Source of the DNA: Alphaproteobacteria bacterium UBA3635
GTDB lineage: Bacteria > Pseudomonadota > Alphaproteobacteria > Rs-D84
Assembly: GCA_002373935.1 (NCBI GenBank)
Contig: DFKW01000004.1
Span: 27,704-91,703 of the forward strand
DNA length: 64,000 bases
Reading direction: 5' to 3'
Shown: piece by piece, positions 11,791 to 59,594 of the stretch
Position numbering within the stretch: the stretch's first letter is position 1
How the letters are laid out: every line of letters begins with the position of its first letter
The notes under the pieces: model-generated
Database searches by the model: none
What the model saw: the letters and a program-made list of their open reading frames with translations, nothing else
Told to the model about the DNA's origin: nothing
Position numbers and translations under genes: made by a program

Positions 11791-11826
11791 AAAAAACACC
11801 GGCAAACACCGGTGTATTTTTTTTTA
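11791..11826. terminator. Bidirectional terminator, CACCGGTG-family hairpin
   Basis: aaaaaacaccggcaaacaccggtgtattttttttt. Confidence 0.7.
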
Positions 11827-13863: not shown

Positions 13864-13898
13864 AAAAAAAACACCGGTGTTTATCGGTGTTTTTTTTG
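13864..13898. terminator. Bidirectional terminator, CACCGGTG-family hairpin
   Basis: aaaaaaaacaccggtgtttatcggtgtttttttt. Confidence 0.7.
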
Positions 13899-21439: not shown

Positions 21440-22312
21440 ATGGTATTTCAAACGGTTGGTATTATCGGCGCAGGCGCGTGGGGAACGGCGTTGGCGATAA
21501 ATATTGCACGGGGCGGCAAAAAAGTCGTCCTGTGGTCGTTTGATGGCGAATACAAGCATTTTGACGGGGTTGATACACCCGCAAATTTAACCGTGGTTCA
21601 AAAATCGTATGATATTGCAAATACGGATGTGTGGCTGTGCGTGACACCGGCGGCGTTTTTCAAAGACACATTGAAAAAATTTGCACCGATTTATAACAAC
21701 CAACCGATTATTATCTGTACCAAGGGCGCAGACAGCAAAACGCATGAATTTATGGGCGAAATTTTGGCATATGTATTACCGCAATGCATGGATTTCGGCG
21801 TTTTATCGGGTCCACAATTCGCCGCCGAGGTGGCGTGCGGCGTTCCCACCGGTTCGACTTTGGCGGGAACGAAACGCGTGTTGGACGCGGGCAGGGCGGT
21901 TTTGAATTTGGCACACCTGGACGAAACAGATGATGTTATTGGCGCACAAATTTGTGGTGTTGGAAAAAATGTTATGGCGTTGATTGCCGGGTTTTTATCA
22001 ATCAAAACGGCCGGCGAAAATGAACGCGCGATGATATTTACGCGGTGCTGTAATGAAATTATAAACATCGGTATTGCCATGGGGGCAAAATTACAAACAT
22101 TTACCGGTCTGTGTGGGTTGGGTGATTTGTTTTTATCGGCAACATCCACAACCTCTCGTAATTTTTCGGGTGGTGTTGCAATTGCAAACGGGACACAATT
22201 GGTTGGCACGGTCGAAGGCATTTTTGCATTTGACACGATATTAAATCGTGCCGAAAGATTGGGTATAAAAACACCGGCACTGACCCAAATAAAGAGCAAA
22301 ATGAAAATATAA
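21440..22312 (+). CDS. gpsA: NAD(P)H-dependent glycerol-3-phosphate dehydrogenase
   Basis: GIIGAGAWGTALA Rossmann motif; GpsA-type central and C-terminal regions. Confidence 0.85.
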   Translation: MVFQTVGIIGAGAWGTALAINIARGGKKVVLWSFDGEYKHFDGVDTPANLTVVQKSYDIANTDVWLCVTPAAFFKDTLKKFAPIYNNQPIIICTKGADSKTHEFMGEILAYVLPQCMDFGVLSGPQFAAEVACGVPTGSTLAGTKRVLDAGRAVLNLAHLDETDDVIGAQICGVGKNVMALIAGFLSIKTAGENERAMIFTRCCNEIINIGIAMGAKLQTFTGLCGLGDLFLSATSTTSRNFSGGVAIANGTQLVGTVEGIFAFDTILNRAERLGIKTPALTQIKSKMKI

Positions 22313-22345
22313 AAAAACGCCGGTCAATACCGGTGTTTTTTTTTA
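22312..22345. terminator. Bidirectional terminator, CACCGGTG-family variant
   Basis: aaaaaaacgccggtcaataccggtgttttttttt. Confidence 0.65.
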
Positions 22346-40920: not shown

Positions 40921-40944
40921 CAAAGTTCAAAGTTCAGAGTTCAC
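40921..40944. repeat. AGTTCAAAGTTCA-family dispersed repeat, copy 1
   Basis: caaagttcaaagttcagagttcac. A partial copy (gagttcagttg) lies at about 40975. Confidence 0.7.
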
Positions 40945-41195
40945 CCCGTCGCCCGTTAGGCTATGGGGCGCAGGCAGAGTTCAGTTGTTGTAACATTTAT
41001 TTCGTTCTCGGATATTCCCCGTCTTTTCTGTCGCAACGGAGCGCAAGCGCAGACAGACAAAAAGAAGGGGTGGCACGAAACCGCAACGCGGTTGAGTGAC
41101 GGGGCAGTTAATATTATTTTCACAAATACTACATCCAATGATAAATTAAAACTAGACAACGCAAAATTTTTTTCTATAATCAAAATACCTTTGTT

Positions 41196-41272
41196 GGATG
41201 TTTAGCTCAGTTGGCTAGAGCATCTGCTTTACACGCAGAGGGTCAGGGGTTCGAGTCCCTTAACATCCACCA
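41196..41272 (+). tRNA. tRNA-Val (TAC)
   Basis: GGATGTTTAGCTCAGTTGGCTAGAGCATCTGCTTTACACGCAGAGGGTCAGGGGTTCGAGTCCCTTAACATCCACCA. Anticodon loop TT-TAC-AC. Confidence 0.9.
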
Positions 41273-41291
41273 TCGTTTGGTTGTTTGTATT

Positions 41292-41323
41292 CCGCCCGGG
41301 TATCGCCTGGGCGGTTTTTTTTA
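41292..41323 (+). terminator. Intrinsic terminator after tRNA-Val
   Basis: ccgcccgggtatcgcctgggcgg plus a T8 tract. Confidence 0.75.
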
Positions 41324-41330
41324 CAGAGTG

Positions 41331-41357
41331 CAGTTTTCAGAGTTCAGAGTTCAGTTG
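41331..41357. repeat. AGTTCAAAGTTCA-family dispersed repeat, copy 2
   Basis: cagttttcagagttcagagttcagttg. Confidence 0.7.
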
Positions 41358-41371
41358 TGGCGTAATCAAAC

Positions 41372-41606
41372 AAAAACGCGGATGCGTTTTTGTCATCCTG
41401 AGCGGAGTGAGTCCAACTTGGCGGAACGCCAAAGCCGGACGAACGCAGTCGAAAGTGAGTCACCAATGGTGACGAACGCGGATCCAGGCATATTTGATGT
41501 CGGGCGTATACGCGCCAACAAATTTGTCTTTGCCAAACCTTAGATCCACGCGGTCTAACGACCGCTTTCGACTGGCGCTCAGGATGACAAAATGCTGGCG
41601 CATTTT
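41372..41606. repeat. About 200-bp multi-hairpin palindromic element with 13-bp terminal inverted repeats (MITE-like or structured ncRNA)
   Basis: TIR gtcatcctgagcg (41392-41404) pairs with cgctcaggatgac (41576-41588). Inner pairing cgcagtcgaaag with ctttcgactggcg. Internal hairpins gtcaccaatggtgac and ggcgtatacgcgcc. Flanking hairpins aaaaacgcggatgcgttttt and aaaatgctggcgcatttt. Confidence 0.5.
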
Positions 41607-41627
41607 GTCGGTTTGGCAAAAATATTC

Positions 41628-41657
41628 TTGCAATAAATAAATTCCATTTTCTATAAT
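41628..41657 (+). promoter_or_regulatory. Consensus-like sigma70 promoter (TTGCAA, 18-bp spacer, TATAAT)
   Basis: ttgcaa at 41628-41633, tataat at 41652-41657. The downstream leader carries the gggag/ctccc long-range pair and a cccgc...gcggg hairpin. Confidence 0.5.
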
Positions 41658-42108
41658 GACATCAGAAATCACCAGGGAGTTGATTTCGGAAAGGCACTTC
41701 AAAAGCCTGAACATAACCGGTGCAAAGTTTGCATCGTGACTCTCCCGCACTCGTCCGATTCGATTCGGCGGGGCTGTGTTTGTTGCATACATATTTTGCA
41801 CCGACATTTATTTGTCGATTTTTTTGATTTATAAATGTAAATTTTTATTCCCACTATGTGAACCCCATCGTTGTATTTGGCGGGGGTGCTGCATACAGTA
41901 ATGTATGTGGGATCATTGTTATGTTTGGTTTTTGAACACCCTAGCCGCGCTCTTCCTGATGATGGCGGTGTTTTTTTTGTGTTTTGTTTTACTGCGGGAT
42001 TTTTTCAAACCGAATCCAATTCCCAGTAAAAAAACTAAGGCCATAAAAAGTTCCGATAAAACAAAACACATCCACCGCACTAATAAAACAACGAACGGGG
42101 AGAAAGAA

Positions 42109-43709: not shown

Positions 43710-45701
43710 ATGGCACAGAAATATTTAATTACATCGGCGTTGCCCTATGTGAACAATGTGTTACATATTGGGCATTTGATTGGATGTTTATTGCCAAGTG
43801 ATGTTTATGCGCGTTTCTGTCGCGCGTTGGGTCGCGATGTGTTATATATTGGTGGTTCTGATGAACATGGAACCCCGTCCGAGGTTGGTGCCCAAAAAGA
43901 AAATATGCCGGTCGAAGATTATGTCGAAAAATACCGCGCAAAACATCTGGACGCGGTGCGGGATTTTAATTTGTCTTTTGATTTATATGGTCGCACGCAT
44001 ACAAAATTGCACGAAAAATTAATTCATGAATTGTTTGAACGGTTGGACTCGATGGGTATGGTTTATGAAAAATCGTCAATGCAGCCGTATTCAATAAATG
44101 AAAAAAAATTCTTGGCGGACCGGTATGTTATTGGGACTTGCCCGCGGTGCGGATATGATGGCGCGTATGGGAACGAGTGCGATAAATGTGGCGCGTCACT
44201 GGACCCGGATCAATTGATAAATCCGCACAGTGCCGTTGACCCGTCGTCCCCGGTTGAAATGCGTGAAACAAAGCATTTGTATTTTAGATTAAGTGCCATG
44301 CAGGATAAATTACGCGCATGGATAAATTCACGCCAGGGGTGGCCAAAAACCGCAATCGCAATCGCAAATAAATGGTTGGACGAAGGACTGCGCGATAATC
44401 CAATTACTCGTGATTTGAAATGGGGAATTCCGGTTAATAAACCCGGTTTCGAAGACAAAGTTTTCTATGTTTGGTTTGATGCGCCGTGGGGTTATGTTTC
44501 AATTTCCCAGGCGGCAACGGACAATTGGGCCGATTGGTGGAAAAACCCGGATTGTAAATATGTGGAATTTATGGGCAAAGATAATGTATCTTTCCATTCT
44601 GTATTTTTCCCGGCCCAAGAATTGGCAATGGATGATGGATGGAAAACCGTCGATGTGTTAAAAGCGTTCAATTTTATGAATTTTAATGGTGAAAAAATTT
44701 CTAAATCACGCGGCAACGGTATATTTTTAGACAATGCGTTATCAATCGCGCCAAGTGATTGCTGGCGGTATGCGTTGCTGGCATCGGCACCGGAAACAGA
44801 CGATACCGATTTCACCGTGCAAAAATTTGCAGAAATCGTGAATAAAGATTTGAACGGTATGTTGGGGAACTTTGTTTCACGCGTTTGCAAACTGACCGAG
44901 AAAAATTTTGGATTGGTGGTCCCAAATCAAAGTTCAAAGTTCAAAGTTCAAAGTTCAGTTATAGCAGATAAAATAAACAAAAAATTAAACGATTTAACCA
45001 CTGCATTGGATCAATGCGAATTTCGTGCGGCGATTTTTGCGCTGCGTTCGCTGTATGCGATTGGTAATGAATATATGACGGAAACGGCACCTTGGGCATT
45101 GGTCAAAGACGGTAAAATGGACGATGCCGGTTCTGTGTTGAATAACTGTTTTCAAATGATTGATTTATTTGCACGCGTGTCGGCACCGTTTATGCCAACT
45201 ACCGCCGCAAAGATGCAAAATATTTTTGGCGCGACGCATGATTTGTCGTGGCCGACATGTTTTGAACACAGAATCGCAAACGGTGAAAAATTTGCCGTGC
45301 CGGAAAATCTGTTCGAAAGAATTGACGATGCGCGTGTCGCAGAAATCAACGAAAAATATTCGGCAAAGCCAAAAACAGCCGCCCCGGTTGTCGCAAAAAT
45401 TTTGGATATTAAATCACATCCCCGGCGCGATGATTTACACATTTTGACGGTGGACAGTGGCAACGACAAATTACAAATCGTTTGTGGTGCGCCAAATGTG
45501 CGCGTGGGGATGGTTGGGGTTTTGGCACCGGTTGGGTGCGTTTTACCGGGCATGACAAAACCATTGGCGGCGCGTAATGTCGGCGGGGTAAAATCCAATG
45601 GCATGATGTGCAGTGCGCAAGAATTAGGTGTTGGGGGGGATGCCACAAAAATTATTGAATTGGATGATACATATAAAATTGGTTCGGAATATAAAGGATA
45701 A
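43710..45701 (+). CDS. metG: Methionyl-tRNA synthetase with C-terminal tRNA-binding (EMAP/Trbp111-like) domain
   Basis: HIGH as NVLHIGHLIG, zinc knuckle CPRCGY..CDKCG, KMSKS as KISKSRGN, C-terminal tRNA-binding domain. Confidence 0.9.
   Translation: MAQKYLITSALPYVNNVLHIGHLIGCLLPSDVYARFCRALGRDVLYIGGSDEHGTPSEVGAQKENMPVEDYVEKYRAKHLDAVRDFNLSFDLYGRTHTKLHEKLIHELFERLDSMGMVYEKSSMQPYSINEKKFLADRYVIGTCPRCGYDGAYGNECDKCGASLDPDQLINPHSAVDPSSPVEMRETKHLYFRLSAMQDKLRAWINSRQGWPKTAIAIANKWLDEGLRDNPITRDLKWGIPVNKPGFEDKVFYVWFDAPWGYVSISQAATDNWADWWKNPDCKYVEFMGKDNVSFHSVFFPAQELAMDDGWKTVDVLKAFNFMNFNGEKISKSRGNGIFLDNALSIAPSDCWRYALLASAPETDDTDFTVQKFAEIVNKDLNGMLGNFVSRVCKLTEKNFGLVVPNQSSKFKVQSSVIADKINKKLNDLTTALDQCEFRAAIFALRSLYAIGNEYMTETAPWALVKDGKMDDAGSVLNNCFQMIDLFARVSAPFMPTTAAKMQNIFGATHDLSWPTCFEHRIANGEKFAVPENLFERIDDARVAEINEKYSAKPKTAAPVVAKILDIKSHPRRDDLHILTVDSGNDKLQIVCGAPNVRVGMVGVLAPVGCVLPGMTKPLAARNVGGVKSNGMMCSAQELGVGGDATKIIELDDTYKIGSEYKG
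44927..44959. repeat. AGTTCAAAGTTCA repeat (4 tandem units) inserted in frame within metG
   Basis: caaagttcaaagttcaaagttcaaagttcagtt encodes ..NQSSKFKVQSSVIADK.. in the anticodon-binding region. The reading frame is preserved. Confidence 0.75.
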
Positions 45702-59559: not shown

Positions 59560-59594
59560 AAAAAACACCGGTAAACACCGGTGTTTTTTTAATA
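59560..59594. terminator. Bidirectional terminator, CACCGGTG-family hairpin
   Basis: aaaaaaaacaccggtaaacaccggtgttttttt. Confidence 0.7.

Follow-up and report, generated by a model that had tools for sequence, protein, structure and literature searches.

A strain-variable palindromic element beside tRNA-Val in Alphaproteobacteria bacterium UBA3635, a probable copy of a variant repeat family associated with Ssn-type nuclease genes

The element and its setting

We analysed a stretch of 64,000 nucleotides from Alphaproteobacteria bacterium UBA3635 (assembly GCA_002373935.1, contig DFKW01000004.1; hereafter the window), in which a palindromic element of ~200 nt occupies 41388–41592, downstream of a tRNA-Val gene. 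The element is probably a stray copy of a dispersed repeat family associated with genes for Ssn-type nucleases, which are small GIY-YIG proteins. On its left lie tRNA-Val(TAC) (41196–41272) and an intrinsic terminator (41292–41314), a conserved plus-strand neighbourhood (41196–41314), followed by an array of AGAGTTC heptamers on the same strand (ACAGAGTGCAGTTTTCAGAGTTCAGAGTTCAGTTG, 41320–41358) that marks the left edge of a strain-variable segment spanning about 41358–41614. The order tRNA-Val, terminator and heptamer repeat directly upstream of the element agrees with an earlier reading of the same DNA made from the letters alone (hereafter the sequence-only reading). On the right, a promoter-like site (TTGCAA-18-TATAAT, 41628–41657, plus strand) belongs to a conserved downstream leader and forms the conserved right neighbour; neither strand has a promoter-like site leading into the element.

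The element is bounded by a perfect 17-nt inverted repeat, TTTTGTCATCCTGAGCG (41388–41404) and CGCTCAGGATGACAAAA (41576–41592), with 171 nt between the arms; by our estimate, chance would produce a perfect repeat of this length, with both arms inside 200 nt, ~7e-4 times per 64 kb. The sequence-only reading had described a palindromic element with 13-nt terminal inverted repeats. That description holds, with the 13-mers forming the core of the longer pair (41392–41404 and 41576–41588). Two flanking hairpins overlap the ends of the element, and the borders proposed earlier (41372–41606) therefore comprise the element plus its flanks. The left flanking hairpin (41370–41393, ACAAAAACGC-GGAT-GCGTTTTTGT) offers an alternative pairing for the TTTTGT extension, and the right one (41586–41609, GACAAAATGC-TGGC-GCATTTTGTC) is retained, in altered form, in a truncated allele of another strain (L133; L numbers denote the loci compared).

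Within these borders the parts are nested. The left terminal repeat, which is the 5′ arm of stem P1 on the plus strand, holds the TGTCAT head common to CGTC/TGTC-tagged repetitive extragenic palindromes (REPs) and to the NTS/SRM repeats considered below, and this head is found on both strands of the window copy. It is followed on the plus strand by a GAG junction and hairpin P2 (41405–41443, GTCC..TTGGCG-GAA-CGCCAA..GGAC), which begins 14 nt past the head and matches in position the variable P2 hairpin of the family. The 5′ arm of stem P3 (41444–41455, plus strand) reads CGCAGTCGAAAG, the family consensus being CGCAGTCGAAGGA, and includes CAGTCGAAAG (41446–41455), which pairs with CTTTCGACTG (41565–41574) in the P3 3′ arm (CTTTCGACTGG, 41565–41575, plus strand). 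No P4 hairpin follows that arm, and the right terminal repeat, the P1 3′ arm on the plus strand, comes directly after it. The variable centre (41456–41564) contains three small hairpins, GTCACCAATGGTGAC (41459–41473), GGCGTATACGCGCC (41503–41516) and GGTCTAACGACC (41552–41563), together with a GGATC/GATCC stem (41480–41484/41543–41547); the same multi-hairpin style of centre is found in three gut Clostridia copies (L010, L110 and L160). The long imperfect hairpin with internal stem-loops seen in the sequence-only reading is thus borne out by the inner pairing and the small hairpins.

The fold of the element lies far beyond chance on both strands. Compared with dinucleotide shuffles, RNA folding gave z-scores of −6.6 (plus strand) and −9.2 (minus strand), and folding as single-stranded DNA (ssDNA) gave −7.0 and −8.6, respectively, with none of 200 shuffles folding as well. 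The short open reading frames (ORFs) that cross the element matched no Pfam or NCBIfam entry, in accordance with the earlier statement that no ORF covers it convincingly. Covariance-model scanning of the window against Rfam returned no match on the element, whether the gathering threshold was applied or E-values up to 10 were admitted, and the element is the only copy in the 64-kb window.

A dispersed family with common ends

A scan of one genome per species, with the window's own ends as the query (GTCATCCTGAGCG-N156-186-CGCTCAGGATGAC), identified more than 120 genome stretches that carry the 13-nt ends at a spacing of 156–186 nt, where an estimated ~0.01 would be expected by chance. The inner anchors AGTCGAAGGA and TCCTTCGACT, which were not part of the query, are both present in 113 of the 131 matches listed. 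Among these, most come from metagenome-assembled genomes (MAGs) of Terriglobia, several with multiple matches, and further matches come from Chthoniobacter, Gemmatimonadales, Phycisphaerales, Eremiobacterota, Bifidobacterium, Gordonibacter, Lachnospiraceae, Eubacteriales, Ca. Avispirillum, [Flexibacter], Pseudobacteriovorax and Granulicella. Isolates are represented by Granulicella (G. paludicola), Chthoniobacter flavus (Ellin428), Bifidobacterium, Gordonibacter and [Flexibacter]. The sequence-only reading had allowed that a single copy with neither an Rfam match nor transcription would be a local palindrome of no special significance. The window does show a single copy, and the Rfam scan proposed there found nothing, yet the recurrence of both ends at the same spacing in other genomes, the shared inner motifs and fold z-scores of −6.6 to −9.2 refute a chance palindrome and leave that explanation practically no probability. 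The pattern occurred on only one viral contig, indicating that the family is not phage-borne; blastn of the element against plasmids yielded chance matches only, and a literature search with element sequence strings retrieved only unrelated primers.

The family shares a nested plan. P1, (T)GTCATCCTGAGCG(GAG), is closed by (CTC)CGCTCAGGATGAC(A); P2 is a hairpin of ~33 nt with variable sequence; P3, (CGC)AGTCGAAGGAyCCCTA with its complement, encloses a variable centre of ~87 nt; and P4, a second hairpin of ~33 nt, is usually present. The window copy has P1, the GAG junction, P2 and the CGCAGTCGAAAG/CTTTCGACTG pairing, carries CGCAGTCGAA where the family places its inner motif, and has a centre with extra hairpins. 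Carrier genomes hold ~24 further arms per Mb by arm profile, and Terriglobia carriers roughly a dozen elements per Mb, copies within one genome differing throughout their centres. Family elements are mostly intergenic and near gene ends (median distance 39–60 nt), more often between convergent than between divergent genes (37 vs 12). Adjacency to a tRNA gene is not a property of the family.

Two further observations concern the ends of family elements. Period-7 tandem repeats, built on a genome-specific heptamer, flank some elements, often as inverted arrays on both sides (L080 5051–5081; L084 4358–4381 and 4600–4622; L086 5370–5391; L018 6300–6320); they are 5-fold commoner at distances of up to 120 nt from elements than in the remainder of the loci, a figure drawn from only 8 cases and confounded by intergenic location. 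In simple-hairpin members the termini are tandemly reiterated, for example as three units of GTCATCCTGAGCGAAGCGAAGCCGTT on the left and four of CGCTCAGGATGACAAGAGGGGTT on the right (L029 2612–2830, L050, L162 from Planktothrix, L101 and L124), which suggests repeated partial copying at the ends.

The hairpins hold their pairing while their sequences vary: the P2/P4 hairpins comprise 163 distinct sequences among 164 (medians, 12 bp and z = −4.8), RNAalifold reports covarying pairs in P2, and orthologous copies differ by a compensatory change from G:C to T:A. Hairpin conservation was measured per element because MAFFT alignment breaks the lower P2/P4 stems. Since each element has one CTTCGC-type and one ATTCGC-type hairpin, elements can be oriented; the junction bases were also tried as an orientation marker and proved unreliable. 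By this measure family elements show no orientation bias relative to neighbouring genes, both orientations occurring. G·U pairs are balanced between the strands (166 vs 155), as is strand stability (18/40). At the flanks of 128 members target-site duplications reach chance level only, and the palindrome is extended by T...A in 117 and 112 of them (T before GTCAT in 117/128). Equal folding of the two strands, balanced G·U counts, unbiased orientation and missing target-site duplications together favour a DNA-level repeat over a non-coding RNA (ncRNA) or a classical MITE (miniature inverted-repeat transposable element).

The ncRNA explanation, which the sequence-only reading had offered as one of two, holds that the element is a structured RNA gene or cis-regulatory RNA whose one-strand transcript acts through its multi-hairpin fold. 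It would account for a fold that is very stable relative to shuffles, for hairpins that keep pairing while their sequence drifts and for a position between a tRNA gene and a promoter. A transcript acting from one strand fits poorly, however, with a reverse strand that folds even better, with the absence of strand bias in G·U pairs, stability or orientation, and with an element that starts after the tRNA terminator and has no promoter-like site before it. Nor did Rfam provide a match, in the window or in eight family loci scanned at E up to 0.1. The element is moreover dispensable among near-identical strains, as described below, and the published partner enzyme of such repeats does not bind RNA (PMC11893778). 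We consider an RNA role very unlikely and no longer retain it as a description of the element.

The other earlier suggestion was a MITE-like mobile element. REPINs, as Bertels and Rainey are said to have described them in 2011, are REP doublets that form hairpins and come with RAYT transposases. The window element could accordingly be a classical MITE or a REPIN, moved by a transposase of either the DDE type acting on terminal inverted repeats or the RAYT/IS200-type HUH kind acting on hairpins. Perfect terminal inverted repeats, multiple copies in many genomes and presence/absence polymorphism all speak for such movement, and two inverted arms, each with its own hairpin, resemble a REPIN. Against it stand the missing target-site duplications and the lack of any protein family recurring among the immediate neighbours (largest cluster, 3 members). 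CGTC-type REPs, moreover, have been reported without RAYTs (PMC3733652). That paper provided the lead for a RAYT/TIRYT partner, a candidate we rejected: the sole Y1_Tnp (IS200-like) ORF in 0.89 Mb of family loci (L075) is unlinked, lying 1.5 kb from the element with unrelated palindromes at its borders, and the paper's supplements contained nothing on such a partner. The divergence of centres within one genome, finally, makes a recent burst from a master copy a poor fit. The MITE-like label is thus right in so far as the element is non-coding, bounded by terminal inverted repeats, dispersed and strain-variable; the duplications and the transposase that the label would imply are missing, and movement by a transposase appears unlikely.

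Small GIY-YIG genes and published hairpin repeats

All ORFs in the 0.89 Mb of family loci were searched by motif and hidden Markov model (HMM). This yielded only four small GIY-YIG genes, none of them more than 100 nt away from an element, an arrangement with a chance probability of ~1e-5. One of the four, at L008, is enclosed by the P3 loop of a complete element. In a Terriglobia dnaK-dnaJ locus the order is element, 16 nt, gene, 3 nt, element; the two copies are direct repeats of almost the same sequence, centres included. A second Terriglobia context has the gene downstream of a ResIII-type restriction gene, and here 11 nt separate a right arm from the ATG that follows it. Clostridia contribute the contexts recF-gene-arms-gyrB and NUDIX-gene-element, and a third, QueH-gene, whose flanks carry the arms in an AT-rich variant. 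Nearly identical nuclease genes thus sit in different contexts with arms beside each, and arms were found within about 100 nt in every ssn-centred context examined. The encoded family-adjacent protein has a PF01541 domain, matches the UPF0213 structures 1ZG2 and 1YWL, and shares 48% identity with the gonococcal homologue that NTS flank.

In other phyla the gene was sought by tblastn on annotated replicons. It occurs alone between conserved genes, as in sufB-gene-sufC (Azospirillum) and gltA-gene-lpxB (Sinorhizobium meliloti), and GTCAT- or GTCGC-headed hairpins flank it in six of six inspected regions (Planktothrix, Spirosoma, Azospirillum, Sinorhizobium, Novosphingobium and Neisseria), the flanking hairpin of Neisseria gonorrhoeae being CGTCATTCCCGCGCAGGCGGGAATCC. 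Heads of the form TGTCATCCTGAGCGGAG flank Ssn homologues such as P0006, from the dnaK-dnaJ locus, and P0142, from the recF-gyrB locus. The family is therefore physically associated with ssn-type genes.

Two of these loci show rearrangements of their own. In the dnaK-dnaJ locus (L139, 2756–3560) the duplication of the ~225-nt element spans exactly TGTCATCC...GGATGACAG around the ssn-type gene, and looks like the footprint of a gene and element copied together. The Clostridia recF-gyrB locus (L153, 1830–2290) is built inside-out just upstream of gyrB, where a right half-element (ending in ...GGATGACA) comes first and a left half-element (starting with TGTCATCC) second, 220 nt of AT-rich tandem repeats with units of ~20 nt (TATCTAAGACAAATATAAC) lying between them.

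The association of Ssn with hairpin repeats as such is already known. Ssn is a family of single-domain GIY-YIG proteins (cd10448) that bind NTS/SRM hairpin repeats with a conserved upstream head, CGTCAT, and cut ssDNA just upstream of the repeat, acting neither on double-stranded DNA nor on RNA nor on the reverse strand; the typical gene layout is NTS-ssnA-NTS, and the system reduces the transformation of N. meningitidis by DNA that bears NTS (Chenal et al. 2025, PMC11893778). Binding and cleavage have been demonstrated for the Neisseria and Wolbachia enzymes only, and NTS are a subset of Neisseria dRS3 (PMC11893778). The CGTC-tagged REP superfamily, CGTC-1 to -4, includes dRS3 (CGTC-1) as well as Rickettsia RPE-4 and RPE-6; its tag is often TGTC, its stems of 8–9 bp start with AT and enclose loops of 4–5 nt, its tail is CCA, and its members form inverted dimers, predominate in Alphaproteobacteria and have no known dedicated transposase, RAYTs being reported as lacking (Di Nocera et al. 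2013, PMC3733652). The published NTS/SRM repeats correspond to these CGTC/TGTC-tagged REPs.

The family resembles the SRM/NTS repeats in its head, HGTCWY (TGTCAT in the window copy, where the first hairpin starts 14 nt further on and not immediately after it), with hairpin-forming sequence behind it, in being extragenic and dispersed, and in flanking small GIY-YIG genes on one or both sides in a repeat-gene-repeat layout. It differs in its unit, a ~200-nt composite palindrome in which inserted hairpins and another conserved stem accompany two inverted arms, where an SRM is a hairpin of 20–50 nt, and in its hosts, mainly Terriglobia, Clostridia, Verrucomicrobiota and Actinomycetota; neither Acidobacteria nor Firmicutes/Bacillota was found as a term in the main text of PMC11893778. 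With CGTC REPs the window copy shares TGTC-AT at both ends, a GGATCCAGG tail on the left arm comparable to the CCA tail, and the arrangement as an inverted dimer without a RAYT; Alphaproteobacteria are also the host class of the window MAG. Unlike CGTC REPs, its arms are self-complementary at most over ATCC(T)/(A)GGAT around a very large branched loop and pair mainly with each other over ~170 nt, and Acidobacteria and Firmicutes are not among the CGTC hosts of PMC3733652. REPIN-like features are the two inverted REP-like arms with a variable spacer that form a long hairpin, the non-autonomous and extragenic nature of the unit, and a putative partner gene flanked by repeats. The differences from REPINs are that this partner is a GIY-YIG nuclease and not an HUH tyrosine transposase, that there is no GTAG tag, and that the ends are identical across phyla where REPIN sequences are lineage-specific.

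Variation at the locus and meaning of the element

Other assemblies of the same organism were reached through the SIMPL-family protein upstream of tRNA-Val, and 13 loci were added by scanning metagenomes with the tRNA 3′ end as anchor. One assembly (L003) is identical to the window, the element being intact in both. A near-identical strain (L001, GCA_046881955.1) has the same flanks around an entirely different ~300 nt that replace ~41358–41614, and in L133 all that is left of the element is its right third, beginning at 41524, another local repeat having taken the place of the left part. In most related-species loci a second tRNA-Val, inverted in L126, and then the methionyl-tRNA synthetase (MetRS) gene come after tRNA-Val(TAC); in four loci (L127, L134, L136 and L138) the sequence beyond tRNA-Val(TAC) is unrelated, and the element is absent from all sampled related-species loci. 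Intact, truncated, replaced or absent among relatives, the element is evidently dispensable and decaying at this site. The tRNA-Val-adjacent locus differs in every strain and species sampled, which agrees with the tRNA hot spot invoked in the sequence-only reading, as far as this locus goes; the family at large shows no such preference.

A further explanation is that the element serves the host, as a transcription terminator, as an insulator or as a hairpin that stabilises mRNA, between tRNA-Val and the transcription unit after it. The element does lie between two transcription units, and the preference of the family for gene ends and convergent intervals would suit such a role. The strains that lack the element nevertheless keep identical flanking genes and promoters. 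On both strands, moreover, a T-run precedes and an A-run follows the long stem, the wrong order for an intrinsic terminator, and tRNA-Val has a canonical terminator of its own. Identical ends across phyla would also be left unexplained. We regard this role as distinctly unlikely, marginally less so than the RNA gene discussed above.

Another repeat of this neighbourhood, element B, is present in the window at ~41010–41107 (GGAyATTCCCCGTCTTTTCT ... AAAAAGAAGGGGTGG ... GACGGGGCAG, with AGAGTTC heptamers before it). An inverted copy lies downstream of tRNA-Val in L001, and it is this repeat that replaces the left part of the element in L133. Its position and orientation around tRNA-Val differ by strain, as if it too were a small module that moves or recombines. 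To the right of the variable spacer, the ~165 nt at 41662–41826 follow the promoter-like site (41628–41657), end in a terminator-like hairpin with a T-run (41802–41825), and are nearly identical in L001 and L133 despite the variable spacer before them. Lying upstream of an exported protein of 511 aa without a Pfam match, this segment is a candidate leader or small RNA; it has no Rfam match and a fold z-score of only −2.1.

Other repeats in the window include an in-frame heptamer array, (CAAAGTT)x4 followed by CAGTT (44925–44960), inside the MetRS gene (43710–45701), where it encodes ..NQSSKFKVQSSV.. in a protein 4 residues longer than in sister species. These heptamers also form intergenic arrays (40921–40944, 40978–40989, 41320–41358 and 50481–50513; inverted at 50545–50585). 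About ten near-identical intergenic palindromes composed of an A-run, a hairpin and a T-run (AAAAAACACCGGTnnnnACCGGTGTTTTTTT; 11791–11821, 13866–13896, 22312–22342, 57102–57132, 59560–59590 and others) are probably bidirectional intrinsic terminators of unusually uniform sequence. The window start lies inside a gene of 123–129-nt tandem repeats (1–810; at least 5–6 units, 60–90% identical).

We favour, with a probability of roughly 0.7, the reading that the window element is an orphan, strain-variable copy of a variant Ssn-associated palindromic repeat family that lies outside the published motif. Several results weigh against it. The published SRM motif, HGTCWYN(0-2)YYVSBRHN(0-5)WNVSBRGN(0-2)RNCYNB, scanned on both strands, has no match in the 64-kb window and none in the 131 family elements, while the controls (NTS and an Azospirillum arm) do match; this failure, together with arms that are not self-complementary, the ~200-nt unit and the different hosts, makes the family a variant and not a member by the published definition. 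The window copy is itself untypical, lacking P4 and having an atypical centre, and a family arm profile stripped of the 13-nt ends scores it weakly and without significance (E = 5.4 window-wide), albeit as the top match. Searching 171 kb of the alphaproteobacterial lineage with the arm profile recovered the window locus only, and hmmsearch of the window detected no ssn (single-domain GIY-YIG) gene; the 171 kb of lineage sequence hold none either. The ssn contexts sampled were few (about 16) and not random. A further difficulty for the proposed spread by Ssn is the copying of such elements by an enzyme that cuts one strand only, and only once.

The nested plan P1-P2-P3-P4 allows either single strand to fold into a branched hairpin resembling a four-way junction. 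We suggest that the family is a REPIN-like, Ssn-associated repeat acting on DNA, where it would serve as a recognition or cleavage tag on ssDNA, with Ssn of this type recognising the TGTCATCCTGAGCG head. Spread of the family is probably owed to the nuclease, whose activity may propagate elements, perhaps through break repair that duplicates the element around the gene. The window copy itself would be functionless, probably a neutral passenger or relic and at most a site on which an Ssn from another part of the genome could act.

A stronger form of the orphan-copy reading, which we put forward as a tentative and rather unlikely extension, takes the ~200-nt palindromes as the unit that replicates in a non-autonomous mobile element driven by Ssn, Ssn itself as the 'missing' dedicated enzyme of the superfamily, and the window copy as one inter-phylum arrival. 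If so, CGTC/SRM-type repeats would have their counterpart to REPINs, and the element-ssn-element duplication between dnaK and dnaJ would be the footprint of a gene and repeat copying themselves. The identical ends in Acidobacteriota, Verrucomicrobiota, Clostridia, Actinomycetota, Bacteroidota and this alphaproteobacterium would then reflect repeated inter-phylum transfer.

For the window, the orphan-copy reading means one candidate ncRNA or MITE fewer, the element being accounted for as a stray repeat in the hypervariable spacer beside a tRNA gene. For the family, it extends Ssn-linked hairpin repeats past the published SRM motif to a large TGTCATCCTGAGCG...AGTCGAAGGA group in soil and gut phyla that has no Rfam model. 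Such elements explain recurrent spurious ORFs across these repeats and, as many ssn genes lie on very short contigs, may add to contig breaks in metagenomes. The family provides candidate enzyme/site pairs for ssDNA tools and test cases for Ssn spreading its own repeats, and its extension at this level may help work on Ssn nucleases and REP-like repeats.

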